From NCBI GenBank assembly GCA_030647105.1, contig JAUSJW010000100.1:1-53925 (forward strand): a stretch of DNA of 53,925 nucleotides. Reading direction: 5' to 3'. Position 1 is the stretch's first letter, and each line of letters opens with the position of its first letter. The translations under genes were made by a program, and so were the position numbers. This DNA comes from Nanobdellota archaeon. Its GTDB lineage: Archaea; Nanobdellota; Nanobdellia; Woesearchaeales; WJIZ01. The notes below the pieces were generated by a model, which saw only the letters and a list, made by a program, of their open reading frames with translations, was not told the origin of the DNA and did no database searches. Positions 1,929-17,932 of this stretch are shown one piece after another.

Positions 1929-1929
1929 G

Positions 1930-2823: not shown

Positions 2824-4184
2824 GGGACAGGGACTTTCTTGAGAATCTCGTCGATGACCTGCTCGGTCTTGATGCCCTCGGCCTGCCCTTCATACGACAA
2901 GATGAGCCGATGGCGGAGCACGTCATGCGCGATGGTCTTGACGTGGTGCGGCGTGACATAGGTCTGGCCGAGAAGCAGCGCCTCAGCCTTCGCCGCGTTG
3001 AAGAGGCCGATCGAGCCCCTCGGGGACGCGCCGAACTCCACGTACTTGCCCAAAGAAACCCCGTATTTCTTGGGCGTGCGGGTCGCGTCGATGAGCTTGA
3101 CAATGTATTTCTCCACTTTCTTGTCGACGTAAATCTGTTTCGCGAGGTTCTGGATTTCGATGATGAGGTCGGGACTGAGGATGGGCTTGATATCGAACTG
3201 GTCGAAGGCGTGCTCGGAGAGGTTGCTCTTCAGGATGCGCTCCTCTTCGTCAATGTTCGGATATCCCATATACAGCTTGAAGAGGAATCGATCAATCTGC
3301 GCCTCGGGGAGTGCGTACGTTCCGACGTTCTCCAGGGGGTTCTGCGTCGCCATGGTGAAAAATGGCAACGGGACGGGGAAGGATTCCTTGGCGATGGTGG
3401 CCTGCTTTTCCGCCATGCTTTCAAGAAGCGCGGACTGTACCTTCGGCGGCGCCCTGTTGATTTCGTCCGCGAGGATGAAGTTGTTGAAGATAGGGCCTTT
3501 GAGCGTGTAGAATCCTCTGCCTTCCTGATACGTGGAGATGCCAATAATATCCGTCGGCAACAGGTCGGGAGTGAACTGGATTCTTGAGAACGAGCATTGG
3601 GTTGTTTTGGCGAGCGCGCGAATTAAAGTGGTTTTAGCTACGCCAGGGACACCCTCTACGAGAACGTGTCCGTCGGCGATGAGCGCGCGGAACATACCTT
3701 TCACGGCTAGGTCCTGGCCGACGATGAGCTTGCCCACTTCAAACTTAACCTTGTCGAAAAGCGCGCAATAGGCGAGAACCGATTTCTGGAGGCTTTTCTT
3801 CTGCCCCGGCGAGAGAACTGATTGTGCCTCGGACGGGAGAGCGGCCTGCTGATGAGCCTGCTCAATGAGCTCTTTCATATTCTCCGCCGAGCTCCCGTGC
3901 TCGACATGCGCGATACTCTCCGTAAGCGAGGGCTCATCCTCGATAGCCCGATCAACAACCGTGTCAGTAGACTCATACTCCTTCTCGACTTTGTCTAGCT
4001 CTTTCTGGCGATCCGCGCCGCCTTTCTCGAGCAGCTCCTGCTCCAGCTCCAGCTTCCTGCGTAGAAGATCGAGACGGCTGGCTTTGGGCTTTGGCGCGGG
4101 CTTGGGAGCCGCCTTTGATTTTGCAGAAGAGGCTTGCGACTGAGAACCCTTCCCCCTTTTTTCTGCCATAGCCCACTTTTGCAT
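2820..4184 (-). CDS. MoxR-like AAA+ ATPase with a ~130-aa N-terminal low-complexity/coiled-coil extension
   Basis: Walker A GVPGVAKTT, FSRIQFTPDLLPTDIIG, Walker B region ILADEINRAPPKVQSALLESMAE, ATQNPLE, C-terminal ASPRGS lid. TATA geometry favours the ATG at 4169 (Met6) as the real start. Confidence 0.9.
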   Translation of the reverse strand: MQKWAMAEKRGKGSQSQASSAKSKAAPKPAPKPKASRLDLLRRKLELEQELLEKGGADRQKELDKVEKEYESTDTVVDRAIEDEPSLTESIAHVEHGSSAENMKELIEQAHQQAALPSEAQSVLSPGQKKSLQKSVLAYCALFDKVKFEVGKLIVGQDLAVKGMFRALIADGHVLVEGVPGVAKTTLIRALAKTTQCSFSRIQFTPDLLPTDIIGISTYQEGRGFYTLKGPIFNNFILADEINRAPPKVQSALLESMAEKQATIAKESFPVPLPFFTMATQNPLENVGTYALPEAQIDRFLFKLYMGYPNIDEEERILKSNLSEHAFDQFDIKPILSPDLIIEIQNLAKQIYVDKKVEKYIVKLIDATRTPKKYGVSLGKYVEFGASPRGSIGLFNAAKAEALLLGQTYVTPHHVKTIAHDVLRHRLILSYEGQAEGIKTEQVIDEILKKVPVP

Positions 4185-4247
4185 CCAGTCCTATAAATAC
4201 TTTCCGGGAGGAATATGTTTAAATATCCCATCTCCTAGAATAACCGC

Positions 4248-4808
4248 ATGAAAAAGGAGCCTGTGTCCTACCGAAAGCATCTTTCCAGGGTCTCCGCGAC
4301 TAGAACCATCGAGGACCTTGAAATGGCGTTCAAGAATTTTATCCATGAGCAATATGACATCCACCATGGGCACACGTTTACTGAAATCCAGAACGTTGCC
4401 GGGAAAAAACGCATCCATCCCCACCTAAGAGAGCATATTCGGAGTGCCGCGCAGATGTTCGAAGAAATGGCCTACCGCAAAAAGAAGCTGAGCAAACACG
4501 AACTGCACCACATCCGAAAGCACGTCCACGCGCTCATCAAATCTTCCAGAGACGCCTACGGCCCGAGCGCTGAGCCGGAGAAAGGGTTATTCGCCCGCGT
4601 CAAGAGGACGCGTGATACGATTGTGCAGAAGACGAAAGAGAATGTCCAGCGCCTCAGGCACAAGGATATCCTCGTTGACGCGGAGTACCGCGAGATGCGC
4701 AAGTTCATGGACGCTTCTCACAAGCTCGGCATGGGCAGGAGCCAAATAGAGACGGAACTGCTTGTCATGGGCTTCCCCAAAGAGAAAGTAGAGAAGCTTC
4801 TCAAATAG
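4248..4808 (+). CDS. hypothetical soluble helical, His/Lys-rich protein
   Basis: 186-aa ORF with a TATA (4218-4225) 23 nt upstream of the ATG. No TM segment. Its central segment resembles the cytoplasmic loop of the giant protein (see findings). Confidence 0.6.
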   Translation: MKKEPVSYRKHLSRVSATRTIEDLEMAFKNFIHEQYDIHHGHTFTEIQNVAGKKRIHPHLREHIRSAAQMFEEMAYRKKKLSKHELHHIRKHVHALIKSSRDAYGPSAEPEKGLFARVKRTRDTIVQKTKENVQRLRHKDILVDAEYREMRKFMDASHKLGMGRSQIETELLVMGFPKEKVEKLLK

Positions 4809-4817
4809 AAACGTGGT

Positions 4818-5945
4818 TTATTTTCCTGTCACCCTATCAAGGGTGATAACACTAATTCCTTTCGCCCGCAAGGCATCAGGGAAAGTAACGCTCGAAAGCC
4901 CGGAGTAAAACTTCCAATTTCCTACAGGCCGCCTGTGCATATCTCCTACATTTGCCAAGTAGACTCCAGGAGACAATTCCTCGGCTCGCTCAGCCCAAGA
5001 ACGATTTCTGACATCGAGAGTGAGATGCGCGAGCGACTGTGTGCTTGTATCTGAGACTCCCGTTTCCTTAAGGACCTTTTTGAGCTCGCCAATCTGCCCA
5101 TCAAGCAACGGCACAAGGGTCTCCGACGCCTTATCCGCCATGGCAAGCAGGGACTTCCTCTCCGCGGAGGGGGCTCCTTGCGCGACTCGCTCCCGATAGG
5201 CCCCAAGGTCTCTGACAAATTCAGTACGATAATGCATGAGGTGATTCAATTCGCCAGCGAGAAGACCCCGCGCAAGAACGTCCTCGCGCTCAAGGCCCAA
5301 TTGGGCATACCCGCCAAGGTGCTTAAAACTTCCTTCGCCTTCCACTGCGTGCGCACGACAGACGCTGGCGATGCGGTTCATTCCCGCGTCCATCAGGTTG
5401 CTCCACGCTCGCGCGTAGACGGCATCCCGCTGCGCAATGGTTTCAGGATCTGCATGCTTACCTAGAATTCGCATATCGTTTCTGAGCACCTCCTGCTGGA
5501 AGTCAATATCGTTAGCATATCCGCCCCATTGGCAGTAAAATTCACGGGTGCGTGCAGTTCTTTGGGTGGCAGGGCTACCTTCGCGAAGAAGGCCCTCGGA
5601 GAGGATGCCCTCAAGCCCGCCGAGAATACGGTCCATTGTTTTCGCCAATGCGAGAGTGCTCTCACCATTGTTTCCCCCAGCCCCACCCTTTTGCGTTCGA
5701 TATTCATGGATTTCGGGGGAGACAACAATAGTCACAAAAGAAATCCCCGGAAAGGATTGGCCATAATCAAGGGGAACGCGCGCGGTTTCCAAAGCGCGTA
5801 TCAGTCCATCATAAGACGTTCGCGCAGACGGAGCAGTCTCTTTAAAGAGTGCCGCATTTCGCGGTTGTGATTCTTGAACAAGGGGAGTGGTGCAGCCCGC
5901 CACCAGAGCGCTCAAGAGCAAGAGAGAGACCTGATAGTTCTTCAT
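4818..5945 (-). CDS. hypothetical lipoprotein
   Basis: Signal peptide with lipobox-like LLLLSALVAGC. Own TATA (5967-5974) 22 nt upstream of the ATG. No family recognised. Confidence 0.7.
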   Translation of the reverse strand: MKNYQVSLLLLSALVAGCTTPLVQESQPRNAALFKETAPSARTSYDGLIRALETARVPLDYGQSFPGISFVTIVVSPEIHEYRTQKGGAGGNNGESTLALAKTMDRILGGLEGILSEGLLREGSPATQRTARTREFYCQWGGYANDIDFQQEVLRNDMRILGKHADPETIAQRDAVYARAWSNLMDAGMNRIASVCRAHAVEGEGSFKHLGGYAQLGLEREDVLARGLLAGELNHLMHYRTEFVRDLGAYRERVAQGAPSAERKSLLAMADKASETLVPLLDGQIGELKKVLKETGVSDTSTQSLAHLTLDVRNRSWAERAEELSPGVYLANVGDMHRRPVGNWKFYSGLSSVTFPDALRAKGISVITLDRVTGK

Positions 5946-6001
5946 CTTCCTTCCGGTTGCTAGAGATTATATAAATTTTACTATTTTATAGTAATTAATA
6001 T

Positions 6002-9000
6002 TTAGACCTTCCTTCTTCTAGAAAGCCAGACAATGATGAGGAAGGCGATGAAGAGCAGCGTCAGGAGCAGGCCTGAGAGCACCTGGTAAAGCGAGCTTTC
6101 CCGCTGCTTGATAGGCTCGAACTGGTCGATTTCCTTGGGCACGGAAAGGAGGTATCTGCAGCCTTCGATGATGAAGCTCAGCCGCTCTCTCGCCCGGTCG
6201 TACTGTCCCGCCTGGATATCGGACTGCGCCTCAGTCATGAGTTCGCTGAGTTCAAGGCATTCTGGATTCATTTGGAGCAGGTCACGCACGAAGTTGATAT
6301 GGTCGTCAATCTGCGTCCGGTTCTCCGCGACGCGTTCGGTACCAGTGAGGGAGATAATAGCCTTGTCGGTGAACACGGGGTCGGTGGAGGTGGCGCTGAC
6401 GATGACGTCGAACTCCCGCACAGTGCCGCTCCACTTGATGAAGAGCCGTGTCTCCTCAGTCTGCTTGGGCACGAGCGTGTCGAAGGCGCTTCTTTCGAAC
6501 CAGGCGATTACCGTGGGGTCGGAAGTATTCGCGACGAGTTTAATGCCGCTCAGTACGGATTCCGCGTTGTTGGTAAGTATGATAGGCGCGACAACCGTGT
6601 CTTCGCTAAATCCGGTAACGTGCCGAGGCGCGACAATTTCGAGATAGCGCGGCTCTGTCACGGTGCGCAGCCGGGTCTTGAAGGTGGTGCGGGTGCGGGT
6701 AACCGTAACGGTATCCGTATCGCTGGTAGTCTCGACATCAGTCACCTCGATAGTGACCGGCGCGCTGAGAACGCTGTCCGTACCGTCCGTAGCGTTGAAA
6801 ACCGCCGTCTCAGTGCCTGCGGAGGTGCTGGTGGTGGTGAGCGAGACAATATGTGTGGAATTGCTGATGGACAGCGCGACGTTCGTGACGCCCGAGACGC
6901 TAAAGAGCAGAGTGTCATCAGTATCAAGATCGGAGAAGTAATCATCGAGGTCAATCCAGTTTGGAAGACTGTCTCCCTCATCGAGCTCAATATTGGGAAT
7001 GCGGTGGCGGATGACAACGGAACTTACGTTCGGAGTCAGATTAGTGTTCGTCGTGTTAAGAATCACCCGATACTGGAGATAGGTCGTATTCTCGGAGACG
7101 ACGCGCTCTCCGGAGCTATTGAGATAACTCCGGTTGAGGAGCAGGATACTCCAGTTGTTCCAAGTGGTGGAATCTTCAGAAGTTCGAGTCTGGAGAACAG
7201 CGGCGGTGCCCGTAGGAGTGATAGCGTCCCAGCTGAGGTTCACAAGGCCAATGGGATTGTAGGCAATAGTAGCTGTGCCGCCCATATCGAGCGCAGGTGA
7301 GAGATACTCTCCACGGTTGTTGAAAACGCTTCCGTTCGCGCCGAGGAGAATGCCCGTATCAGAGGTGTTCGTGCCGTTCGCCGTGCCGGAGGAGAAATCC
7401 GTAGCGTCGTGGTCCACAAAACCAAAGCGCGGCGCGCGGTTGCTGTCCGCGACCGTAATATTCCATGTGAACGTAGCGTTCGCGTTCCTTGGGTCGGAGA
7501 TAATAACCGTGACATTGTGCAGCCCCGCGTCCAGGAAGTCCGGCACGTACGTAAGCGCGCTCGTCGTGTTGCTTGTCGAGTTCAACACGCCGTCGATGTA
7601 CCAGCGGTACGTGACGTTATCACCGTTGGAATCGTTCACGGAGACGTTGAAGGGTACAGTCGCGTTCTCCGAGACATTGATGGAAGTGCGGTTCAGGGTG
7701 AAAGAACTCAGGTTGGCCCACGCGAAGACAGTAGTATTGGAAAGCGGAGTCCCGTAGGGAGTGAGCTGGGTGAGGTTGGGCGGGCTGTTGACAGAAAGAA
7801 TGGTCAAATTAAACAGAACGGAAGCGCTCTTGCCCCCGGAGTCATTGACCGAGAGGTTCACGACATGCAGGCCGACAAAGGAGCTGTTCACCGTGACGTT
7901 CATCATGCCCGTGCTGCGGTTGATTGCGAAAGGAGCGCTGAGATTGAAGCCGTAGGTGAGGTTCGGCTCTCCGTCCTCCTCGTCAGTCGCGTTCACATCA
8001 TAGAGCAGGGTTTGCAGCGCTTCCGCTTCGAGGTTGGGCACACTCACCGAGGGGACATCGTTGAAGAACTGCACCTGGAAATTGACCGTCTTGTTGGTCG
8101 TCACGTTCGCGAGGTCAGTGACATTGAACTGAACCGTGTGATTGCCTACTTGTGTAGAGTTAGGCGTGAAGAGAATCCGCCCCGTGGAGGCGTTGATAGT
8201 GAAGAGCGTCGAGTTCGTGCGGTAGGTGAGGGTGTCGTTGCTCGGCACAAGGAAATCCTCATCCGTGGCGTTGACCGTGTAATTGAAGAGCGAATCCTCC
8301 GTTGCGTTGAGATCTGAGAGGGTGAGCGTCGGAGCGTCATTGGTGTTGTTGACTGTGAAGTTGATGGTCTGGCTCGTATTGAGCTCATAATCCGAAGCGG
8401 TGAAGTTGATAGAATAGTTGCCGACGAACGTGTAATTGAGCGTGAAGTTCGCGACCGCCCCGCGTATAGACATATTCTTGATGGTAAACCAGCTCGCGTT
8501 CGCCGTGAAGTTGACGGCGTCGCTCTCCGCGTCCGTCGCGTTGATGGTGCAGGTAAAGAGGATATCCTCCCACGCGGTGCGCTCGTTTTCGCAGAGGTAG
8601 ACGAAGGTGGGTGCGGTGTTAATGTTGAGCACTTCAACTCTCAGCGCCGCATAAACTGCGAGTCCGTTGCTGTCGTTCACCGTGATATTAACTGTATAGT
8701 TTCCAACTTCGGTTATCGTAGGAGTGAAGGAAATGAAGCCTGCGCTCGTGATGTTGAAGAGCGTCGTGTTGTCTGAGAAATTGAGGGTATCGGGGGTCGG
8801 GAGGTTGAAGTCGTCATCCGTGACATTGCGGCTCAGATTGTAGGTGAAAGGTGTGCCGCGCGTCGCGGTCAGGTTTGGCACGAGGGTGAAGGTGGGCGCT
8901 TCAGGAGTGTTGTTGACCGTCACGTTGTAGACATAGGTTGTGGCGTCGCCCCAGAAGTCAGTCGCCGTGACAAGGACGCGATGGTCTCCCACCCGGTCGT

Positions 9001-12000
9001 CGTTAGGGAAGAACGACGCGTTCCCAGCCGCGGAAAGATTGAACCAGCTCGTGTTAGAAGTGAAGTTGACGGCGTCATTCTCAGCATCAGAGGCGTTAAA
9101 GAGACAGCTGAACTGCGCGCCTTCCTGAATTACGGTGAAATTGGAGCAGATGAGGCCGAACACAGGCGCGGAGTTGGTTCTGACCGAAAGATTGAAGGTC
9201 GTGAACCCGAGCGCGAGCGCTATATCTGTCGCGTTTACGAGCACTGTGTAGTTTCCTGCCTGGGCAAGAACCGGCGTGAAATTGAGCCTGAGCGCGGTTG
9301 CGTTGAGCTTGGTGAGAGTAAAGAAACTCTGGTTCACCGCGAACGTGAGGTTTTCTGACGTGTTGAGGAAGCTATCGTAGGGCTGAGAGAAGTCGTCATC
9401 CGCGGCGATGACCGTGAACGTGGAGTTCCGTCCGATAATGGCAGTCTGGCTGGCGAGAGTCGTGAAGACAGGCGCGTCGTTAGTGTTGTTAACAGTGATG
9501 TTGATAGTGGTCAAGGCATGAAGCAGACCGTCGCTGAGATTGAGGCGAACGCTGTAGTTGCCAACCTGTGCGTTGGAGGGCGTGAAGTTAGCGAGGAACG
9601 ACCTGCTCGTTGTCCTGCTGATGTTAAACCAGGACAGGTTAGAAGAGAGCGTCAGGGTATCCAGTTCTGAGTCTGTCCCGTTGATAATGCAGAAATGGCG
9701 AATGTCTTCGATGGCCGTTGAGTTGGAGCAAGTGGCGTCGAAGCTCGGCGCGTTGTTGATGTCCGTCACCGTGAAATTCGCGAGCTTATAGCCCATTCCA
9801 TTGTCTGTATCGCGGACAGTGAGGTTCAGCGTGTAATTTCCAGCGTCATTGTTTAGGGGCGTGAAATTGAACGCGCCGGTAGTAGAATTGATTGCGAGCG
9901 TCAGCGCCGCGCAGTCGCTGAGATAGTTTTGCTGGCAACTCACGATGCTGAAGTTGTACACTAAACTGGCTGCCGCGGTTTCCTCGTCAGAAGCGGCGAG
10001 CTGGTAGCCGTAGAGCGTTTCTGTGGTCGCGGACGAGATACTCGTTCCTGCGGGAGTTGAGAACACAGGCAAGTCATTGACCGCCGTGATAGTGAGGTCG
10101 ATATTCGCCGAGTCGGAATCGCCACTAGTATCGCTGACCGTAACCAAAGGCCTAAACGGCCCGGAGTTGGAAAAGTTGGAGGTCGTGACGCGAACAGTGA
10201 AGTTGCCATTCGTGAAGTCGAAGCGCCAGCAGTTGCTGCAGTCGGGATGGGAAGTAAAATTCTGGATAGAGCCAGCGGTGTAGTCAAAGGCCAGCCCGTC
10301 ATTGATATTGACATCCGAGGAGTAGTGGCTAATGTTGTACTTACAATCGAGGTCCTCAGTGCAGACCAGTGGCTCGAGGTTATTGCCCGTCTTGTTGAAA
10401 GCGGGGGCGCTGTTGTTAATGAGGAGGTCATCCGTAATGTTGAGCGTCGGGGAGGTTGCGTTGGCGCAGAGCACATTGAAGTAAGACCTTCCCTTGTAAG
10501 GAATTGTGCGGTTGTAGCTATAGAGGCCGCCGGCCTCGCTAAAGGTCATGTTCGCCGCGCCTTCATAAGCTCCTGTGAAATTGAACTGGATAGTGCAGAT
10601 TCCACTGATTGCCGTGCCATTAGTGTAATTAGCGTAGAAGGTCAGGTTGGTCACCGAGTATTTCGCGAGCCCGTCGACATCCTGGCTGTCGTAAACTGAG
10701 AGGTTGGCGCCCGAGCTGTTTACGCTTGCGAAGTTGTGCGCGTAGGCCTCAGCCGAGCCGAAGGTGAACCGCTGATGATGGCTTCCTGCGGTGAGGACCT
10801 GTGCAGTCCACGTCGCTGTCGTGTTGCAGGAATAGTTCGAAACTGTCGCGAGGTTTCCTGACTGGAGGAAGGGAATCTCGGCATCGCCACAGGTCAGCGT
10901 CTCAGGCATCAGGTCTCCGGAAGAGCCGTAGGTGGTTCCGTTGCTCGCCGCGATGGAGAGGTCAGCCGCCCCGAGAGTGGTGAACCGCACCTCCCATTCC
11001 CCGCCAACCGTCGGGTAGCTCTGCACGTTCAAGATGGAAAGTTCCACCTCATAGGTCTCGTTGCTCAGGTGAGGTACCTGCCATTCTATAGAGTCTATTA
11101 GTCCATTGTTGTTGCGGTCAAACGCGTCGAACGTTGCTTCTTCTCGCGCGCCTCCGACAACATGGTAGAGGTGAATTGCGTCAACAGGCACCTCAGGGAG
11201 CTCCGTGAAGGCGGTGATGTTCAGATAATGGAGTTCTGAAGAGATAGTAACCCGCTTCGTGCTTTCAGAAAGCTGCTCTTCGGTAGAACGAGGGGATTCC
11301 GTGTAGTACTCGACTTCTACTTCAGGCGAAGCTGTCACCACCTGAAGTTCCGCCGGAGCCCGCGCCGCTCCCGCGACAACTCTGCTCGGACCCTCTTTGA
11401 GCGCGTAATCCGTTTTCTCCAATTCGCGAACACCGGAAGCGGTGAGCTCGCGCACCGTGAAGTTAAGCGGAACATGGTCGAGCGTGACGGTCGCCCCGCG
11501 AACGCTGGCGATCTTTGTCCAGCGTACAGGCTGGCCAACGCGGGCAGCCCCCTGCACGTTCACGTCTTTCGGCTGCTTCACCTGAATAGAAATCAGATTA
11601 GAAAGCGACGATTGTTCCGTGTCGCTGGCCGTGAAGAAGGTGAAAGCGGTTCCGGAGAAGCCTGGCTGCGCGGAAACCAGGGCCACTCCGTCAACAATCT
11701 CAACATCAATGCCATCCACTGAGTACCAAGAATAAGACAAGGTATCGCCATCCGCGTCCGTGGCGAAATCACCCAGGCGCAGCTGCGTAACCGCCCCATA
11801 ATCGAGGCTGAGGTTAGGGAGATCGCGGAAAGCTGGAGCCCTATTGAAAACAAGCGAACTGCCATAGGAAACGCTCTCAAGGACAAACGTCCCGTTCTGC
11901 ACCTCAATGGAGAGCGTTCCGGAAACAGGAGTAGAGAGCCTGCAGGTCTCGTCGCAGACATCGACGAAGCGCCGTTCGGAAGGCTCGAACACGACGCTGA

Positions 12001-14869
12001 TATTTTCTTCCTCGGACTCTACAAGCTCAAAGTAGCTGTCTTCTGCGGAGAAGCTGTAATTCGCGTACGCGATTTTCGCGGTGACGATATTCTCCGATCC
12101 TGCGCCGAGCTTGCCTTCCGAAAGGAAAAAGGTGTCATCGTACGTATCGCGCTCCGCCGCCAAGTCATACAGCGCGCAGCATCCCGCTCCGCCGTAGCAC
12201 ACGCGCTCCTGTGTTTCCAACGCGCGCACCGTGTAGATCGCGCAGAGATTCTTCGGATCCGCTTCCCATCCCAACTGGCTGCCTTCCACAGTGAGGTCCA
12301 CCACGCCGCCGCTATCGACAACCCCATCGTCATCAGGGTCCCAGGCGGTTCCGGCATGGTAATCCAAATCAAGGTCAATAGCTCTTTCTCCGGGCGATAA
12401 GGATTTGCGAGTATCCGTCTTCACGCGCGATAAAGGCCGGGAAGCGCTGTCAAAGACCACCTGAGTTCCAGCCAGAACACGCGCATGGGCTCCGGAGCTG
12501 AGCGTTCCAGTAAGCGTGAGCGAAGATAGGCTCCGCTGACCAGGGAAGAGTTCATAGGACGCGGGGAAAGCGAACGTCTGCCCGACAGGCACCGTGAAGG
12601 TCGCGTTTTCCCGCACGAGGAATCCAGTCAATGGCGCGTCCTGGAGGAAGAAGAAGGCACCAGCGAAGAGGAGCAAGAGAGCCATCGCGACCGCCACGCC
12701 TTGCCGGGGCCTGAACACGCGGACAGGTTTGAGGCGCGCGAGTTGTGTTGCCTCGTGCAGGAGGGCTTCTACTCTTCCGCGTGACACCGCTCCCCCGCTA
12801 TACGCCAATTCCGTAAGCTGAGAGAAGAAAGGCTCGACAGACTTCTGGAGGAAGTCGTGAAGTTTCTTTTCGCGGGCCGCCTTGCCGAGCTCTTCGTAGG
12901 TCGCCTCGTATTCAATGCTAAGGTGGTGTTTGAGCCAGTCCTTCATAATGGTGTCAAGCTGTTTGAGCGCGAGCGTGGGCTCTTCCCTCGCTATCTGGCT
13001 CGAAAGCAAAGAGAGCCGAGCCGTGATATCGGGCGCCTGTCGCGTCAGGACATTCAAAGCGGGATGCGCGGACGAGGGGAACAGGCGCGAGAGCAGGAGC
13101 CGGAGTTTGCTCGGCTTGCCCTGCTTGGCTGCCAGCCTGCGATGGATAAAGGCGCGAAGAGGCTGTAAGGCCGCTGAAATCCGCTGCCTGAACGGTTTCT
13201 TGTGATGCAGCCAGCCCAAAACGCCCAGGAACAAGAGGGCGGAAAGCGACGAGATAATAAGGCCCCATTCCACTCCGCCGTACAGTTCAGGTGGCGCGAG
13301 CTTGGGCACTTCTGTCGGCGCGACAATCTCCTCTTGTCTGCATGATCTGCACGGCCCGCCGCAGTCCACGCCTTGTTCGCAGAGGGTAGTGCCGTTCTCC
13401 GCGCGTGGACAATTCATAACGGCGTCGAAGCAGGTCGCGCAGGAGTTCTCGCATGAGCCGCCGCAGTCCACGCCTTGCTCATCATAGTCCTGTCTCCCGT
13501 CAAAGCAGTAATCTCCGGCGTTGCACTGGCGAGTAAGATTGGGCGTGTATCTCCCCGTCTTGCATTCGTTCAAATCTGAGCAGTTTCTCGCGGCGTATCC
13601 CGAGCCGCACAATCCCCAGCCAGAGCAGAACCATTTCTCCTCGCAGCGTTTCGAGCTTCCTCCGCCGCCTCCGCCGCCTCCGCCGCCCACGACAGCTGCG
13701 GGAGTGGACGCTTCAGGGAGGTTGTTCACATTCAGGTCGAAGATAATCGCATCAGAAGCGGCAATCGTATCGTTCGCTTCTATGCTCACACGCTGCCTTC
13801 CAAACGCGTTGGCCTCGACCGCGAAGCTGATAAAGTGGGAAGAGGGGCATACTCCTTGCCGCGGATCGCGGTTATTCTCAATAGAGACAGAGACAAAGGG
13901 ATTCGCGGAGATAGATCTAAGCTCAAATTTGAGGCAGTCACCATTCGAGTCGTTGAAGAAGTCGTCGAGGTCGTACGCGTTGATAATGTTATGGTCTTCA
14001 TCCCAAGTGTAGTTGAGCGTTCCAGCAGACGTAACATAGAACGGCTTGCTGTTGGTGGGAAGAATAGTGATATTGATAAGTTGTGAATCGGTATTGTTGG
14101 CGCACGTGTTGTTGTCCTGCGCGGTAATGTTAAGGAGGTGGTAACCGACATGTTTTAGGTCGGGAGTAATTGTGAGCAGGCCTGAGCTCGCGTTGAGAGT
14201 GACATACGAACCGCCGACTGGGGAGAGCGACGCGTAAGCGTCCGTCTGATTGAAGGCGATGCTGAAGTTTATCGCGTCTCCCTCAGGGTCGGACGCGTTG
14301 ATGTCGATGACGAGCGTCGCGTTGCGGTCCACGCTGAAGCTCGCCGACACGTTCAGTACCGGAGGCTCGTTCGCCGCGCAATCGGAAGTGATGTTAAGCG
14401 GCAGGACAGAGGAGGTAACCTGATTACTGCATCCCGATCCGTCGCTTATGTTGATAGCGATATGGTAGTATCCTGCCGAGCTAACAGAAGGCGTGAACGT
14501 GACGCCGCCTGAAGACGAGATGTTGAACAAGGTAGTGTTGTCGATGTAAGTGAAACTCGTACTGGGATTGGCGTCGGACGCCGAGACTGTGCAGTTGTAG
14601 AGCACTGTCGCGTTCGCTGTGGACGAGCAGTTGGACACGTTGAGTGATGGCGCGGTGTTGACACAGAAGGTCACGCTTCCAGAGCCGGAGTTCATGCCCG
14701 TCACAGCGATAACCGCGGGCTCTGGAGATTTGAGGAAGACAAGCGCGCTCCAAACAGAGACCGCGAGCAAACAGAGCACCATCAAAGCGAGCGTCGTGTT
14801 CGAAAGCGCCGCGGCTCGCGCGCGCGTCATCATGCCGGCAAGGCCCCAATTATTTCTTCTGTTGCTCAT
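6002..14869 (-). CDS. giant (2,955 aa) multi-TM surface protein with cadherin/Ig-like repeat array, Cys-rich module and dense N-glycosylation sequons
   Basis: Uninterrupted ORF. N-terminal hydrophobic anchor, two internal hydrophobic helices, and a C-terminal TM plus RRRKV. About ten repeats of ~90-115 aa joined by N-x-x-(A/P)-P-x-F linkers. Every other-frame ORF inside it is Arg/Gly/Pro-rich junk. Confidence 0.85.
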   Translation of the reverse strand: MSNRRNNWGLAGMMTRARAAALSNTTLALMVLCLLAVSVWSALVFLKSPEPAVIAVTGMNSGSGSVTFCVNTAPSLNVSNCSSTANATVLYNCTVSASDANPSTSFTYIDNTTLFNISSSGGVTFTPSVSSAGYYHIAINISDGSGCSNQVTSSVLPLNITSDCAANEPPVLNVSASFSVDRNATLVIDINASDPEGDAINFSIAFNQTDAYASLSPVGGSYVTLNASSGLLTITPDLKHVGYHLLNITAQDNNTCANNTDSQLINITILPTNSKPFYVTSAGTLNYTWDEDHNIINAYDLDDFFNDSNGDCLKFELRSISANPFVSVSIENNRDPRQGVCPSSHFISFAVEANAFGRQRVSIEANDTIAASDAIIFDLNVNNLPEASTPAAVVGGGGGGGGGGSSKRCEEKWFCSGWGLCGSGYAARNCSDLNECKTGRYTPNLTRQCNAGDYCFDGRQDYDEQGVDCGGSCENSCATCFDAVMNCPRAENGTTLCEQGVDCGGPCRSCRQEEIVAPTEVPKLAPPELYGGVEWGLIISSLSALLFLGVLGWLHHKKPFRQRISAALQPLRAFIHRRLAAKQGKPSKLRLLLSRLFPSSAHPALNVLTRQAPDITARLSLLSSQIAREEPTLALKQLDTIMKDWLKHHLSIEYEATYEELGKAAREKKLHDFLQKSVEPFFSQLTELAYSGGAVSRGRVEALLHEATQLARLKPVRVFRPRQGVAVAMALLLLFAGAFFFLQDAPLTGFLVRENATFTVPVGQTFAFPASYELFPGQRSLSSLTLTGTLSSGAHARVLAGTQVVFDSASRPLSRVKTDTRKSLSPGERAIDLDLDYHAGTAWDPDDDGVVDSGGVVDLTVEGSQLGWEADPKNLCAIYTVRALETQERVCYGGAGCCALYDLAAERDTYDDTFFLSEGKLGAGSENIVTAKIAYANYSFSAEDSYFELVESEEENISVVFEPSERRFVDVCDETCRLSTPVSGTLSIEVQNGTFVLESVSYGSSLVFNRAPAFRDLPNLSLDYGAVTQLRLGDFATDADGDTLSYSWYSVDGIDVEIVDGVALVSAQPGFSGTAFTFFTASDTEQSSLSNLISIQVKQPKDVNVQGAARVGQPVRWTKIASVRGATVTLDHVPLNFTVRELTASGVRELEKTDYALKEGPSRVVAGAARAPAELQVVTASPEVEVEYYTESPRSTEEQLSESTKRVTISSELHYLNITAFTELPEVPVDAIHLYHVVGGAREEATFDAFDRNNNGLIDSIEWQVPHLSNETYEVELSILNVQSYPTVGGEWEVRFTTLGAADLSIAASNGTTYGSSGDLMPETLTCGDAEIPFLQSGNLATVSNYSCNTTATWTAQVLTAGSHHQRFTFGSAEAYAHNFASVNSSGANLSVYDSQDVDGLAKYSVTNLTFYANYTNGTAISGICTIQFNFTGAYEGAANMTFSEAGGLYSYNRTIPYKGRSYFNVLCANATSPTLNITDDLLINNSAPAFNKTGNNLEPLVCTEDLDCKYNISHYSSDVNINDGLAFDYTAGSIQNFTSHPDCSNCWRFDFTNGNFTVRVTTSNFSNSGPFRPLVTVSDTSGDSDSANIDLTITAVNDLPVFSTPAGTSISSATTETLYGYQLAASDEETAAASLVYNFSIVSCQQNYLSDCAALTLAINSTTGAFNFTPLNNDAGNYTLNLTVRDTDNGMGYKLANFTVTDINNAPSFDATCSNSTAIEDIRHFCIINGTDSELDTLTLSSNLSWFNISRTTSRSFLANFTPSNAQVGNYSVRLNLSDGLLHALTTINITVNNTNDAPVFTTLASQTAIIGRNSTFTVIAADDDFSQPYDSFLNTSENLTFAVNQSFFTLTKLNATALRLNFTPVLAQAGNYTVLVNATDIALALGFTTFNLSVRTNSAPVFGLICSNFTVIQEGAQFSCLFNASDAENDAVNFTSNTSWFNLSAAGNASFFPNDDRVGDHRVLVTATDFWGDATTYVYNVTVNNTPEAPTFTLVPNLTATRGTPFTYNLSRNVTDDDFNLPTPDTLNFSDNTTLFNITSAGFISFTPTITEVGNYTVNITVNDSNGLAVYAALRVEVLNINTAPTFVYLCENERTAWEDILFTCTINATDAESDAVNFTANASWFTIKNMSIRGAVANFTLNYTFVGNYSINFTASDYELNTSQTINFTVNNTNDAPTLTLSDLNATEDSLFNYTVNATDEDFLVPSNDTLTYRTNSTLFTINASTGRILFTPNSTQVGNHTVQFNVTDLANVTTNKTVNFQVQFFNDVPSVSVPNLEAEALQTLLYDVNATDEEDGEPNLTYGFNLSAPFAINRSTGMMNVTVNSSFVGLHVVNLSVNDSGGKSASVLFNLTILSVNSPPNLTQLTPYGTPLSNTTVFAWANLSSFTLNRTSINVSENATVPFNVSVNDSNGDNVTYRWYIDGVLNSTSNTTSALTYVPDFLDAGLHNVTVIISDPRNANATFTWNITVADSNRAPRFGFVDHDATDFSSGTANGTNTSDTGILLGANGSVFNNRGEYLSPALDMGGTATIAYNPIGLVNLSWDAITPTGTAAVLQTRTSEDSTTWNNWSILLLNRSYLNSSGERVVSENTTYLQYRVILNTTNTNLTPNVSSVVIRHRIPNIELDEGDSLPNWIDLDDYFSDLDTDDTLLFSVSGVTNVALSISNSTHIVSLTTTSTSAGTETAVFNATDGTDSVLSAPVTIEVTDVETTSDTDTVTVTRTRTTFKTRLRTVTEPRYLEIVAPRHVTGFSEDTVVAPIILTNNAESVLSGIKLVANTSDPTVIAWFERSAFDTLVPKQTEETRLFIKWSGTVREFDVIVSATSTDPVFTDKAIISLTGTERVAENRTQIDDHINFVRDLLQMNPECLELSELMTEAQSDIQAGQYDRARERLSFIIEGCRYLLSVPKEIDQFEPIKQRESSLYQVLSGLLLTLLFIAFLIIVWLSRRRKV
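7424..10417 (-). repeat. in-frame tandem array of ~10 cadherin-like domains (aa 1485-2482 of the giant ORF)
   Basis: Recurring linkers: NNSAPAF, VNDLPVF, INNAPSF, TNDAPVF, TNSAPVF, PEAPTF, NTAPTF, TNDAPTL, FNDVPSV, NSPPNL, SNRAPRF. Recurring core: F(N/T)I...G.(I/L).FTP...VGNYTV. Confidence 0.75.
13658..13687 (-). repeat. (GGCGGCGGA)x3 + GGA microsatellite encoding Gly10 linker
   Basis: Plus strand reads tcc tcc gcc gcc tcc gcc gcc tcc gcc gcc. This encodes aa 395-404 of the giant ORF. Confidence 0.9.
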
Positions 14870-15059
14870 GCTTCAGGTACTCACGTTTTCTCGCGACGGC
14901 CTCCTCGAGGCCGGCGTCTTTCAGATAGCGTATGAGAAGGTGGCGGATGCCCTCACGGGCGATTTCCGCGTCCGTCGAGAACATGCCGATTTCAATCAGT
15001 TTCCGCATTTGCTCTTTCAGCTCTTTCCCTACGCGGATATGAAGAAGTTCAGATTCCAT
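14850..15059 (-). CDS. ribbon-helix-helix (CopG/Arc-like) DNA-binding protein
   Basis: 69 aa. N-terminal beta-strand LLHIRVGKELKEQMRKLIE followed by helix DAEIAREGIRHLLIRYL. The stop overlaps the giant ORF start by 20 nt. Confidence 0.7.
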   Translation of the reverse strand: MESELLHIRVGKELKEQMRKLIEIGMFSTDAEIAREGIRHLLIRYLKDAGLEEAVARKREYLKHEQQKK

Positions 15060-15080
15060 GCATGACTTGCCCGGCGGTTT

Positions 15081-15095
15081 GTATCATTTTGATAC
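15081..15095. promoter_or_regulatory. perfect palindrome GTATCA-TTT-TGATAC upstream of the RHH gene
   Basis: Read directly, 22 nt upstream of the RHH ATG (15059). The core CATTTTGATA recurs at 15114-15130. Confidence 0.5.
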
Positions 15096-15113
15096 TCTTT
15101 CGAACCTTATAAT

Positions 15114-15130
15114 GTACCATTTTGATATAC
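15114..15130. promoter_or_regulatory. second, imperfect copy of the palindrome (GTACCATTTTGATATAC)
   Basis: Shares CATTTTGATA with 15081-15095. Lies next to TTTATATA at 15134-15141. Confidence 0.4.
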
Positions 15131-15203
15131 TCGTTTATATATGTTTGCTTTACTTGGTTTACTTGATTTATTTTACTGAGTATTGCTGGAACCTCCAATC
15201 AGT

Positions 15204-16373
15204 TCATTGCCCGCTCTTGCGCGAGCGCCTCCTTGCCCACAAGAAGAGGTTGAGCGCGAGCAAAGAAGCGCAGAGCGCCGCCGTGAAAATCCAGAGAGAC
15301 ATCGGCTTAGAGGGCGATGGAGCTATCTGGGAAAGGGGAGGGGGGAGAAGAGTGAGAACATACTCCTCCTTTGGAAGCTCCCCCGTGAAGCTGCCCTCCG
15401 GAAGAAGTCTGACGCTGATGCGCTGCTCCAGCTCGCCTGATGCCCTCTTCGTTTTCACGTTCGGATTCGCGTTCAGGAAGTCAATGCTGTAGGTGACGTT
15501 CCTACTTTCGCCCGGGCTGAGGAGGAGGAGCGAGGAATCGAGCGTCAGGAACGGCGTCATGGCGCCCTCTCCCGCCACCGCGAGCGCCATGCTTCCCCCG
15601 CGGAGATTTGAAACCGTGAAAGCGCCAGATAGGTAGGTGCCATCAAAGGTCACATTCGCGCTGTTGGGCGTGATGGCGAATTCGGAGAGCTGCGCCGTCA
15701 GATGCTCGATGCGAACGATATCCAGCGTCGCTTCCGAAGGCAGCTCGGCGCGAATTCTAAAGGGACCTTTCGCGCCCTCCAGCCTGCACGTCGCCACGCA
15801 CTGCTGCTCGAAGCGCGTCGGCGCGTCAGCGGCGAAGATAAGTTTTGAGGCGGATGCTCCGCCTTCGTCCCATTCGAGATAGAGTCGAGCCGGACCCTCC
15901 CCAGTATAGGTTCCCGTAACAAACACACCATTAACCGATCCGGGCTCCCCCCAGACAACGGAAGTGTTCTCCGTAAACCTCCATCCCTCGGCGCCTCCCG
16001 CGACGTTAAGCGAGAAGACCACATTTCCAGTCAAATCGGGTATAAGCGCAAAGGTTCCCAAAACCACCAGGAACAAAAGCGCGCCAATAAGCCCCCAAGT
16101 GCGAGTCTCCTTCGAAAGGCTGGCGTCTAGTTGTCGAATCCGTGCTTCCTGAAGCTGTAACTCTGTCTGATAGAACCTATAATAGTACGCGAAGGATTTT
16201 CCGGCAAGCCCGGTGTGATACACCTGAGTATATTCGGCCCTGGATACGCTGCCCCGCCGGAATGCCTCATGGAGTTGAGACTCTTGTTTAGCGAGCCGCT
16301 CAATATACTGCCCACAAAGCGCTGCCTTTCGCGCCGCGAGCGCCTTCTCGTTCCGCAGAGAGAGAAGGCTCAT
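15204..16373 (-). CDS. hypothetical bitopic membrane protein (cytoplasmic helical N-terminus, TM, beta-rich ectodomain, C-terminal TM plus basic tail); mini-paralog of the giant protein core
   Basis: 389 aa. TM WGLIGALLFLVVLGTFALI followed by PDLTGNVVF, then CVATCRL, then C-terminal LWIFTAALCASLLALNLFLWARRRSRK. 4-nt overlap with the upstream HTH gene. Confidence 0.7.
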   Translation of the reverse strand: MSLLSLRNEKALAARKAALCGQYIERLAKQESQLHEAFRRGSVSRAEYTQVYHTGLAGKSFAYYYRFYQTELQLQEARIRQLDASLSKETRTWGLIGALLFLVVLGTFALIPDLTGNVVFSLNVAGGAEGWRFTENTSVVWGEPGSVNGVFVTGTYTGEGPARLYLEWDEGGASASKLIFAADAPTRFEQQCVATCRLEGAKGPFRIRAELPSEATLDIVRIEHLTAQLSEFAITPNSANVTFDGTYLSGAFTVSNLRGGSMALAVAGEGAMTPFLTLDSSLLLLSPGESRNVTYSIDFLNANPNVKTKRASGELEQRISVRLLPEGSFTGELPKEEYVLTLLPPPLSQIAPSPSKPMSLWIFTAALCASLLALNLFLWARRRSRKSGQ

Positions 16374-16846
16374 TTCTCCCTCGCGCGGTGATACGCTGTC
16401 CAGACCGTGCGCTGGTTTCTGTCAATGAGCCGGGCGATATCAGCGAAGCTCAGCTTGCGCTGCTCGTGCAAGTAGGTGACGAGGTTCTCAAGAAGGGAAC
16501 GCGGCTTTTTGCCGAGCGTCTCCACCGGGAGGTCGTGCGGCGAAGCTCCCGGCCAGACGCGTTTCTGCAGCTTTCTGCGCGCGTCGCTAACAGCCTGCCA
16601 GATGCCCTGCTTGCTGCGGCAGAGCAGGCGCGCGACAGTTGTGATGCTCAACTGGCGTTCCTCGACAAGGTACGTCGCGACGGCTTCGAGCGGACTCAGA
16701 CCCAGGGCAAGAACGGTGGGCGGAACACGGATGCCCTGGGCGAGCGCGACGAGCTCGGAAGAAGAGAGGCGGTAGTCCTGCTGCAGGCTGTCCAGCAGCC
16801 TTCTCAGTTCCAGAAATCGAGTATCACTGCCTACCGCGCGCCGCAT
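16370..16846 (-). CDS. tandem helix-turn-helix protein (two sigma70-r4/LuxR/HTH_10-like units)
   Basis: LSPLEAVATYLVEERQLSITTVARLLCRSKQGIWQAVSDARRKL and LLENLVTYLHEQRKLSFADIARLIDRNQRTVWTAYHRAREK. TATA 25 nt upstream. Confidence 0.7.
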   Translation of the reverse strand: MRRAVGSDTRFLELRRLLDSLQQDYRLSSSELVALAQGIRVPPTVLALGLSPLEAVATYLVEERQLSITTVARLLCRSKQGIWQAVSDARRKLQKRVWPGASPHDLPVETLGKKPRSLLENLVTYLHEQRKLSFADIARLIDRNQRTVWTAYHRAREK

Positions 16847-16870
16847 TGGTAACTATATGTAGGTAATTTC

Positions 16871-16880
16871 TTTATAAATA
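16871..16880 (-). promoter_or_regulatory. TATA box for the tandem-HTH operon
   Basis: TTTATAAATA, 25 nt from ATG 16846. Confidence 0.65.
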
Positions 16881-16937
16881 TTTCCAATTAGTAAATATAT
16901 GTAAGTAAGCTTCAGGAAAGGCGCTTAGGCAGAAATG

Positions 16938-16945
16938 TTTATATA
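16938..16945 (+). promoter_or_regulatory. TATA box for the pilin-like gene pair
   Basis: TTTATATA, 23 nt upstream of ATG 16968. Confidence 0.7.
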
Positions 16946-16967
16946 GGTTCCACGCCAGAGAGAAAGT

Positions 16968-17414
16968 ATGGGAAAAAGAGGCAGGAGAGCGCAGTACTCT
17001 ATGGAGTTTATGCTGGTCTTCTCGTTCTCCCTGCTGATTGTGCTCCCGCTCATTATGCTCCTTCAATCAGAGTACAATCAGAACAAAGAAGTGCTCAACG
17101 TCGCGCAGGCTCGCAAGGTGCTTGACCAGATTTCTATCACCGCGCAGAAAACCTACTACGCTGGCCCGCCCAGCCGCAACACCCTAGAAGTCATCGTTCC
17201 TGCGGGGGTCACCAACATCAGCGTGACCAATATCGACGGCGCGAACCGAAAATCTGAGTTGGTTATCACGGTCGACAGGGGCATGGACCAGGACACGCTG
17301 GTAGATGTCCTGCCCTTCTGGATAAACATCTCACTTTCCCCCTCTTCAGGCACCCGCAAAATCCTCCTCAAGGCAGAGGACACAAGAATCATCAACATCA
17401 CCGAAATCGCATGA
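16968..17414 (+). CDS. class III signal peptide (archaeal type IV pilin-like) protein
   Basis: MGKRGRRA-QYSMEFMLVFSFSLLIVLPLIML fits the QxSxE class III motif followed by a hydrophobic helix. Confidence 0.75.
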   Translation: MGKRGRRAQYSMEFMLVFSFSLLIVLPLIMLLQSEYNQNKEVLNVAQARKVLDQISITAQKTYYAGPPSRNTLEVIVPAGVTNISVTNIDGANRKSELVITVDRGMDQDTLVDVLPFWINISLSPSSGTRKILLKAEDTRIINITEIA

Positions 17415-17932
17415 GACGCGCCCAGTACTCCCTGGAGTTTATGATATTCATGGCGATGCTCTCCGTGCTTTTTCTCGCCTTCCTGGTCAATTATACAGAC
17501 TCCCTCCAGCAGCTGTTTGTCGACCGTGAAAAAGCAGCGTTCGATGACCTCGGCCAAAGTATCCGCACCACGCTCATCGCGACCTCGAAGGTGATAGACG
17601 GATTCAAAATAACCCTCCCGGAGATTCCGGAGACCATAGCGGGCATCGAATTCGAGATTAACAATACACCCTATTATTTCTATCTGAGCAACAGCAAAAC
17701 CGATTATGTGTATAGCATGCCCTACACAATTGGAAAGTTCAGGAAAGGGAGCAATGTGCTCTGGAATGTGGAAGGCGTGCTGGCTCTCAGCGATTATCCC
17801 CCGATAGTCCGAGCAGACGGTGTTGTGAATTTCACCCAGTGCAACGATCTCGTGGACAACGACGAGGACAGCTTCGTCGACCTAGGTGATGTGAATTGCA
17901 CAGTTTGGTCTCAGGATAATGAAACCGGCTAA
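17411..17932 (+). CDS. class III signal peptide (archaeal type IV pilin-like) protein with C-terminal Asp/Cys metal-loop-like motif
   Basis: MRRA-QYSLEFMIFMAMLSVLFLAFLV. C-terminal CNDLVDNDEDSFVDLGDVNC. 4-nt overlap with the previous gene. Confidence 0.75.
   Translation: MRRAQYSLEFMIFMAMLSVLFLAFLVNYTDSLQQLFVDREKAAFDDLGQSIRTTLIATSKVIDGFKITLPEIPETIAGIEFEINNTPYYFYLSNSKTDYVYSMPYTIGKFRKGSNVLWNVEGVLALSDYPPIVRADGVVNFTQCNDLVDNDEDSFVDLGDVNCTVWSQDNETG

Follow-up and report, generated by a model that had tools for sequence, protein, structure and literature searches.

A helical domain common to a soluble protein and the predicted cytoplasmic loop of a giant surface protein beside a MoxR-DUF58-VWA operon in a Nanobdellota archaeon

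In this work, we describe a gene cassette from a 53,925-nt stretch of DNA of a Nanobdellota archaeon (contig JAUSJW010000100.1 of assembly GCA_030647105.1, hereafter the window), in which a gene for a giant surface protein (6002-14869, minus strand) is accompanied by a gene for a small soluble protein, ORF186 (4248-4808, plus strand), and by an operon of the MoxR-DUF58-VWA type. As judged from sequence profiles, ORF186 and the intracellular loop of the giant share a homologous helical domain of ~90 residues. That the operon belongs together with ORF186 and the giant as one conserved unit is strongly supported by the gene order retained across related genomes. Very probably, this cassette represents a conserved surface-protein unit of DPANN-type archaea composed of the giant, its cytoplasmic domain, the soluble paralogue and the MoxR operon. 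We propose tentatively, and at somewhat less than even odds, that the tethered domain serves as a handle for the MoxR/DUF58/VWA machine. Taking description and mechanism together, we consider this the best explanation of the data, with a probability of about 0.6.

The helical domain and its family

The relationship was suggested by an earlier reading of the window, made by eye (the original prediction), in which residues 651-703 of the giant (nt 12761-12919) were aligned to residues 37-89 of ORF186 with 11 identities. Both the coordinates and the count proved exact: the ungapped alignment of 53 positions holds 11 identities and 25 BLOSUM62-positive pairs, and the similarity exceeds that of shuffled controls. 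The Smith-Waterman score of ORF186 against the loop is 75, while shuffled sequences give 32.9±5.5 (z = 7.6, 0/200 shuffles as high). BLASTP aligns 73 columns at E = 2e-5, which is a modest pairwise signal, and the two proteins are reciprocal best phmmer matches among the 549 open reading frames (ORFs) of the window (E = 2e-4 and 7e-3).

A profile of 68 family members, from which the window proteins and the giant's orthologue were left out, recovers ORF186 at E = 4e-26 and residues 625-713 of the giant at E = 7e-15 (hmmsearch); no further window protein was matched by it. A profile of soluble members only gives 26.6 bits for the loop and 38-55 bits for other membrane tails, and thereby removes the circularity; a profile from six membrane tails only gives 58.9 bits for ORF186. 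Alignment of the family with the loop of three orthologous giants by hhalign reaches a probability of 98.7% (E = 1.6e-16). The homologous domain thus delimited from profiles corresponds to aa 8-104 of ORF186 (4269-4559, plus strand) and aa ~625-713 of the giant (12731-12997, minus strand). The original prediction had also placed it in a third gene, ORF389 (15204-16373, minus strand), where it was not confirmed, as discussed below.

In the AlphaFold model of ORF186 (mean pLDDT, the predicted local distance difference test score, 84.4), the domain is composed of five helices (8-17, 21-36, 44-53, 58-75 and 83-104); after it come a linker helix and, at aa 145-185, a bundle of three helices that forms the C-terminus. 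The protein has neither a transmembrane (TM) segment nor a glycosylation sequon (N-x-S/T), and a Foldseek comparison of the model with the PDB returned generic helical bundles only (E≥0.28). Neither ORF186 nor the loop has a Pfam match (scans at E≤0.1 and E≤1) or an NCBIfam match.

When 1.84 billion cluster representatives were searched exhaustively with HMMER, the queries being ORF186, its homologue of 74% identity and the loop, 71 proteins passed E≤1e-3 and 22 of them E≤1e-10; the aligned family has the consensus ..F[RK]xFLxxxxxI.YE[FY]T[YF]xEL....KK.I...LK..I......[LI].E[IL]EY.g.K.S..E[IL].. (proteins and loci are referred to below by our working P and L numbers). Three architectures were found. 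Soluble members of ~120-350 aa carry the domain followed either by a Lys-rich helix and a three-helix end, as in ORF186, or by a TPR-like hairpin; the three-helix end of the ORF186-type members has the conserved motif E-I-x-[RK]-[FY]-[IV]...G...I-[KR]-K-E-L-x-x-M-G-F. Surface proteins of 730-970 aa begin with an N-terminal TM segment and an Ig/cadherin-like ectodomain, continue through a poly-Gly run to a Cys-rich region with GIDCGGPCPPC repeats, and after a second TM segment have the domain on the cytoplasmic side, then a TPR-like hairpin. In the giants (2200-3400 aa), the domain forms an internal loop; these are the window ORF, P0038, the giant of L006, P0060 and the product of a 3367-aa gene beside P0037. 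Many family members are short stand-alone or coiled-coil proteins.

Identity is 38% between the tethered domains of the window and P0038, 30% between the soluble proteins of the window and L005, and 18% between the soluble and tethered copies of the window. Across loci, tethered domains group with tethered ones and soluble with soluble ones, not with the partner from the same genome. Since each copy is closer to its counterparts elsewhere, the duplication is ancient and both copies have been retained; for the same reason, we reject the idea that ORF186 and the loop were recently duplicated or were homogenised by gene conversion.

Organisation and conservation of the cassette

The giant (2955 aa) is built of Ig/cadherin/PKD-type repeats (Pfam Big_9 3.9e-23, PKD 5e-7) and has four hydrophobic segments, predicted as TM (aa 19-37, 536-554, 724-742 and 2930-2948). 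There are 152 sequons in its two long segments, at a density of 4.9-5.9 per 100 aa, along with 48 Cys residues. The 169-aa stretch between TM2 and TM3 (aa 556-724; 12698-13204, minus strand) is predicted to be cytoplasmic because it has no sequon, no Cys and an excess of K/R over D/E (30 vs 15).

A full-length orthologue of the giant is P0038 (43% identity over 2933 columns), while in most of the syntenic loci (L007-L014 and L020) the giant is replaced by two adjacent genes, A and B. Residues 1-724 of the giant (12698-14869, minus strand), comprising an N-terminal TM segment, an Ig-like ectodomain, poly-Gly, a Cys-rich region, a TM segment and the cytoplasmic domain, are colinear with the separate 730-970 aa proteins P0043, P0053, P0055, P0067 and the gene A products of L007-L014 and L020; gene A aligns to aa ~107-713 and ends after the helical domain. 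Gene B of L007-L014 aligns to aa ~1600-2952 with ~30% identity (E around 1e-122), which corresponds to the repeat ectodomain, C-terminal TM segment and basic tail of the giant (aa ~1600-2955; 6002-10069, minus strand). The middle part (aa ~725-1600; 10070-12697, minus strand), which begins with TM3 and PLTG and contains the module that was compared with ORF389, is present in the fused giants P0038 and L006 and missing in the split-gene loci. As these alignments indicate, the giant arose when genes A and B, neighbours in the ancestor, were fused, with the middle part as an extra, and the C-terminal tail of gene A has thereby become the intracellular loop of a four-TM protein. A fusion origin had been anticipated in the original prediction; it holds with genes A and B as the partners, and an origin from an ORF389-like unit was not detectable. 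In L020, a 139-aa TM-plus-cadherin gene lies between A and B, and P0060 resembles a fusion of gene A with a unit of this kind.

The poly-Gly linker of the giant includes a run of ten glycines before the Cys-rich region (aa 395-404; 13658-13687, minus strand), and the linker is kept in the gene-A-type proteins P0043, P0053 and P0055. The metagenome contig L004 ends at this run, before the loop, probably due to an assembly break at the GGN repeat. The C-terminus of the soluble paralogue, a three-helix bundle in ORF186, is a TPR-like hairpin in L007-L014 and L020. The hairpin motif A[KR]xxYxxIKExYxxLxxExKKxIYxxIxxLY is common to the gene A tail and the soluble paralogue in the hairpin loci (L007, L010, L011, L013 and L014, with the soluble gene at ~9870-10640, and L020, 17228-18280); the soluble protein of these loci therefore mimics the entire gene A tail and not the domain alone.

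The operon consists of genes for a BatA-type membrane VWA protein (996-1928; Pfam BatA 2.9e-7, VWA_2 2.3e-21, VWA 5e-18), a VWA-like DUF58 protein (1930-2823; DUF58 4.9e-41) and a MoxR-family AAA+ ATPase (2820-4184; AAA_3 1.8e-56, AAA_lid_2 1.2e-19, bpMoxR 6e-9). All three are on the minus strand and contiguous or overlapping, and by coordinates and Pfam they represent the Bat-type three-gene core, with the BatA/VWA gene as the final conserved gene. The MoxR protein has a Lys/Ala/Pro-rich N-terminal extension of ~140 aa (aa 1-140) with a coiled-coil-like stretch, which is kept in L005 and L006 (433-454 aa) and missing in L007-L014 (321-328 aa), the lineages with the split giant.

The gene order, VWA-DUF58-MoxR on one strand, the soluble domain gene on the opposite strand and the giant or genes B and A in convergent orientation, is syntenic in at least 14 loci from Nanoarchaeota/Woesearchaeota-type metagenome-assembled genomes (MAGs): the window, L001, L005-L014, L020 and the 92-kb contig of P0037 (a 123-aa protein). 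L001 encodes the 74% relative of ORF186, which was the single relative obtained by the word-indexed search; L005-L014, found with a 10-sequence domain subset, are ten GTDB species genomes labelled as Nanoarchaeota, Nanoarchaeia, Woesearchaeota or "Methanosarcinales" MAGs; and L020 was reached independently, via gene A. Identity to the window proteins is 60-69% for MoxR, 38-63% for VWA (L005-L014 and L020) and 36-60% for DUF58, and the genes flanking the block differ between loci. In the syntenic loci that have a giant, the soluble gene is always located between MoxR and the giant gene(s), and the giant or gene A adjoins it in 12 of the 13 loci with enough flank. The original prediction had joined all these genes into one system and had named their co-occurrence in related genomes as a check. 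This co-occurrence was found for the operon, the soluble gene and the giant gene(s), while ORF389 and the tandem helix-turn-helix (HTH) gene next to it belong to close relatives only (the P0004 lineage).

Proposed role of the tethered domain and its alternatives

The helical domain is probably (about two chances in three) a distant relative of DUF4129 (PF13559), its membership in that family not being established. Four of 69 family members have DUF4129 matches in Pfam, all of them sub-threshold. The best one, P0027, matches with aa 30-84 on positions 13-64 of the 69-position model (19.4 bits, E = 1.1e-3) and P0058 with aa 56-101 on positions 24-66 (14.4 bits), and both matches fall exactly on the helical domain. 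Two members match DUF4381 weakly, and ten further members or locus proteins have no DUF4129 or DUF4381 match in Pfam. For reference, we used DUF4129 and DUF4381 genes that were reached from MoxR matches on plasmids and verified with Pfam (35-123 bits; 35-55 bits for the three DUF4129 domains). With hhalign, the family gives no significant score against two DUF4129 sequences (P = 0.13) or one DUF4381 sequence (P = 0.55); 68 family sequences against three DUF4129 domains give P = 0.0073 over 76 colinear columns, with a score of 19.1 vs 7.55±1.41 for column shuffles (maximum 11, 0/100 as high). The aligned patterns pair T-x-x-E with T/P-x-x-E and E-x-E-Y with E-x-R-Y. The placement of the domain is DUF4129-like in the gene-A-type proteins, which carry it 40-90 residues past the second TM segment; this tail position has become a loop in the giant, and the soluble ORF186 type departs from the arrangement. 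The neighbourhood with MoxR and DUF58 is DUF4129-like in the window, L001, L005-L014, L020 and the P0037 contig. Verified DUF4129 genes adjoin MoxR-DUF58 in Streptomyces, Halomontanus and Halomarina, and Catenovulum has a DUF4381 gene placed between its DUF58 and BatA genes.

MoxR ATPases are known to cooperate with VWA partners in acting on specific client complexes. For this reason, and because MoxR-DUF58 genes recur near large surface proteins and a rare domain is common to ORF186 and the giant, we suppose that the tethered cytoplasmic domain could be an intracellular handle at which the MoxR/DUF58/VWA machine engages the surface protein. This engagement may serve for assembly, quality control or remodelling of the giant, and ORF186 would then be an adaptor or a competitor, pairing either with the handle or with DUF58/VWA. 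Homology, predicted topology, synteny, fusion and ancient paralogy are established in this scheme, while all of its physical contacts and the direction of action are those that we infer. In a broader version, MoxR-DUF58-VWA would be a dedicated cytoplasmic chaperone that assembles or remodels the giant surface adhesins of DPANN archaea, working via the DUF4129-like handle with the soluble paralogue as adaptor, and the DUF4129 and DUF4381 proteins of bacterial Bat/PFNA-type MoxR operons would be modules that recognise membrane or surface proteins as clients; we regard this generalisation as rather doubtful.

Several observations weigh against the proposed explanation. In L012, the MoxR operon is accompanied by a 120-aa domain protein but by no giant gene, and therefore the soluble protein may belong primarily to the MoxR operon. 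The C-terminus of the soluble protein varies between lineages, which argues against one fixed output function. The proposed link to DUF4129 falls below every standard threshold: neither ORF186, nor the loop, nor the family consensus matches the Pfam model in scans at E≤0.1 and E≤1 (the gathering score is 24.8 bits), and the HH probability is only 5%. In addition, the function of Bat-type operons is experimentally undefined (PMC3557215, PMC5700661).

The original prediction offered another explanation, according to which the helical module recurs in ORF186, the giant and ORF389, an ectodomain module recurs in the last two, and the giant arose from a fused and expanded ORF389-like unit. ORF389 is predicted to be a bitopic membrane protein with a helical N-terminus in the cytoplasm, a pair of beta-sandwiches of Ig-like fold and a TM segment at the C-terminus (AlphaFold mean pLDDT 65.7; helices H3-39, H45-54 and H61-108), with Foldseek matches to generic Ig-like, PapD, MSP and RbmA folds. 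Its sole homologue from the word-indexed search is P0004 (50% identity), and a contig profile search with both sequences gave no match in the genome set and matches of the P0004 lineage only in the metagenome set. The N-terminus of ORF389 has Smith-Waterman z-scores of 0.9 and -1.3 against ORF186 and the loop; hhalign gives E = 0.2 for ORF389+P0004 against ORF186+P0002+loop and P = 0.69 for the 68-sequence family against the N-terminus of ORF389+P0004. ORF389 has no hidden Markov model (HMM) match to the family profile at E≤10 and none to the soluble-only or tail-only profiles; its motif AFRRGSVSRAEY reads AQHEGRLSSEDH in P0004, so the motif residues are not conserved. By the P of 0.69, the lack of an HMM match and the different predicted helix layout, a copy of the helical domain in ORF389 is ruled out. 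The ectodomain claim fared better: the motifs are present and colinear (the giant has ~143 residues more), ORF389, P0004, the giant, P0038 and L006 all keep F-x3-C-x2-[ST]-C-x-[LI], and the strand G...A[RK][VL][YL] is conserved in both small families (ORF389/P0004 and giant/P0038/L006). For a chained profile alignment with a long free gap, just 0 to 11 of 500 column shuffles reach the observed score at the different gap costs (p about 0.004-0.02), and the order HTH-ORF389-RHH-giant (RHH standing for a ribbon-helix-helix-like gene) is kept in the relative of the P0004 lineage, with the HTH gene accompanying ORF389 in L002 and L004. Against this, the full-length Smith-Waterman comparison gives z = 0.2-0.5, and hhalign of ORF389 with the giant ectodomain (aa 746-1005), with 2 and 3 sequences per side only, gives P = 0.0022 with the TM segments and P = 0.0039 (probability 8.6%) without them. 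Moreover, a TM segment followed by P-x-[ILV]-T-G is found also after the first TM of the giant, in gene B elsewhere and in the unrelated ORF 23483-24172, and the post-TM [ILV]TG motif is therefore a general post-anchor feature of the lineage. The ectodomain homology suggested by these comparisons is weak and marginal. In addition, ORF389 is missing from the 11 wider syntenic loci, the ~394-aa proteins found in its place elsewhere are unrelated to it, and the fusion partners of the giant are genes A and B. We consider this explanation as a whole improbable.

Two further explanations retain the MoxR operon or the domain pair and assign them differently. ORF186 could be an archaeal operon component of the DUF4381/DUF4129 type that belongs to the MoxR operon only, with the giant as an uncoupled neighbour carrying a related tail. 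L012 would fit this, as would the location of the proteobacterial DUF4381 gene inside the operon, between DUF58 and BatA, and the abundance of short stand-alone or coiled-coil members in the family. Nevertheless, the giant or gene A stays beside the soluble gene in all but one of the loci with enough flank despite differing surroundings, the same rare domain occurs in both neighbours, and both paralogues have been kept since before the lineages split; thus, we find this explanation unlikely. Less likely still is transmembrane signalling, in which the giant would sense contact outside the cell and its cytoplasmic domain would sequester or release the soluble paralogue, whose three-helix end would alter transcription together with the RHH and HTH proteins. 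The three-helix end of the soluble protein does have weak matches of the RecX_HTH1/COMM_HN type, and the RHH gene overlaps the start of the giant here and that of gene A in L020, with the HTH gene nearby. However, this end is swapped for the TPR-like hairpin in L007-L014 and L020, the RHH and HTH genes are missing from L007-L014, and no DNA-binding family is matched above threshold.

Neighbouring genes of the window

The RHH-like gene (14850-15059, minus strand; 69 aa) has no Pfam match at E≤0.1; its NCBIfam matches, to ParD (E = 0.0045) and to VapB (E = 0.021), fall far short of the cut-offs, and a strand-helix-helix pattern is visible by eye. The tandem-HTH regulator (16370-16846, minus strand) matches Sigma70_r4_2 (4.3e-6) and DUF134 (1e-3). 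The coordinates bear out the gene overlaps described originally, 20 nt for RHH/giant and 4 nt for HTH/ORF389. Inclusion of the RHH gene in the system holds in part: a homologue immediately precedes the giant in L003 and L004, where it overlaps the giant's start, and gene A in the distant L020 (E = 1.5e-19, with a 4-nt overlap with the gene A start), while no RHH or HTH gene was found in L007-L014. The RHH gene is thus conserved in some lineages, and ORF389, the tandem-HTH gene and partly the RHH gene are lineage-level additions, which probably act as local regulators or accessory surface proteins.

The ~394-aa conserved membrane proteins encoded upstream of gene A (L010 18757-19938, L013 18789-19982 and L020 7516-8700) have a signal peptide, a beta-rich ectodomain, a C-terminal TM segment and a basic tail, with a ~100-140-aa partner gene alongside; as positional orthologues of ORF389 they are ruled out (hhalign P = 0.14). 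The ORF at 23483-24172 (minus strand) encodes 229 aa with no family match and has a TM segment followed by QPITGM. The post-anchor motif P-x-[ILV]-T-G, shared by this ORF, ORF389 and the giant (twice), could act across the lineage as a signal for processing or sorting.

Between ORF186 and the giant gene lies ORF375 (4818-5945, minus strand), with a lipoprotein-like N-terminus (LLSALVAGC). It is ruled out as a cassette member, and its slot looks like a variable insertion site, because the slot is empty in L001 and occupied by an unrelated 207-aa gene in L006. At the other end of the cassette, the syntenic loci contain no homologue of ORF280 (150-992); the first 2 kb, with ORF280 and the VWA gene, have a G+C of 0.466, compared with 0.50-0.58 across the remaining window. 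Two overlapping small genes on the plus strand (16968-17414 and 17411-17932) start with MGKRGRRAQYSMEFMLVF and MRRAQYSLEFMIFM, respectively, followed by a hydrophobic helix, a combination that resembles the class III (type IV pilin-like) signal peptides of archaea. A Pfam family is matched by neither of the two genes, and the second has a weak NCBIfam match to an "acidic double-disulfide repeat".

Comparison with known systems

To our knowledge, few prokaryotic gene clusters that lack an established client or function are as widespread as the MoxR-DUF58-VWA (Bat-type) operons. A rare domain common to an accessory protein and to the cytoplasmic side of a giant nominates a concrete client and a recognition module, in a cassette conserved across lineages at the identity levels given above. 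The analysis also defines an uncatalogued domain family (not in Pfam) with at least 71 cluster representatives and documents the gene fusion by which a tail was turned into an intracellular loop, in organisms whose host-contact machinery is largely unknown. MoxR, DUF58, BatA-VWA and repeat adhesins are of already known kinds. What appears to be new is the pairing of a soluble with a tethered copy of the domain, the likely affinity of this domain to DUF4129, its conserved coupling to giant adhesins in DPANN-type archaea and the tail-to-loop fusion.

In DPANN archaea, for example in nanohaloarchaea, multi-thousand-residue, repeat-rich, membrane-anchored surface proteins are thought to mediate host contact (PMC10266531). 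The giant of the window is similar to them by description; the papers retrieved on such proteins mention neither a MoxR linkage nor a paired cytoplasmic domain. Searches of the literature linking DPANN archaea to MoxR and DUF58, or to giant surface proteins, yielded nothing describing this cassette, and no paper was found that joins DUF4129 with MoxR.

DUF4129 proteins of Actinobacteria and Haloarchaea resemble the case described here in having an all-helical region of ~70-90 residues directly after a TM segment, the colinear pattern T-x-x-E ... [FL]-x-E-x-[ER]-Y-[GS] and a gene beside MoxR and DUF58. In contrast to the DUF4129 clusters, the domain of the cassette is paired, with one soluble copy and one copy in a giant repeat adhesin, and there is no transglutaminase-like or DUF4350 gene among the Pfam-scanned cassette genes.

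The Bat and MoxR-DUF58-(DUF4381)-BatA-BatB-BatD operons have MoxR, DUF58 and BatA-type VWA genes in the same order as the cassette and, as in Catenovulum with DUF4381, a small helical operon-associated protein comparable to ORF186. Unlike the operons of Bacteroides and Catenovulum, the cassette has no adjoining second VWA, TPR or BatD gene (no BatB/C/D/E), and the ORF 150-992 next to the VWA gene has no match in NCBIfam, the only database it was compared with. Its small protein also differs from that of the Bat operons: it is soluble, its gene is transcribed divergently, and it is a paralogue of the tail of the adjacent giant.

The closeness of MoxR-DUF58 genes to large surface proteins is found in bacteria as well. 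On a Vescimonas plasmid, large dockerin-type proteins flank MoxR-DUF58-transglutaminase, and the bifidobacterial PFNA cluster pkb2-fn3-aaa-atp(MoxR)-duf58-tgm includes an FN3 surface protein, with MoxR proposed as its chaperone (PMC8430577). As in PFNA, a large glycosylated repeat surface protein is encoded here beside MoxR and DUF58, although the Pfam-scanned genes of 996-17932 have no Transglut_core or kinase match. Unlike PFNA as described (PMC8430577), the surface protein and the operon of the cassette are linked by a common cytoplasmic domain, and the recurrence of this pairing suggests what such ATPase operons act on.

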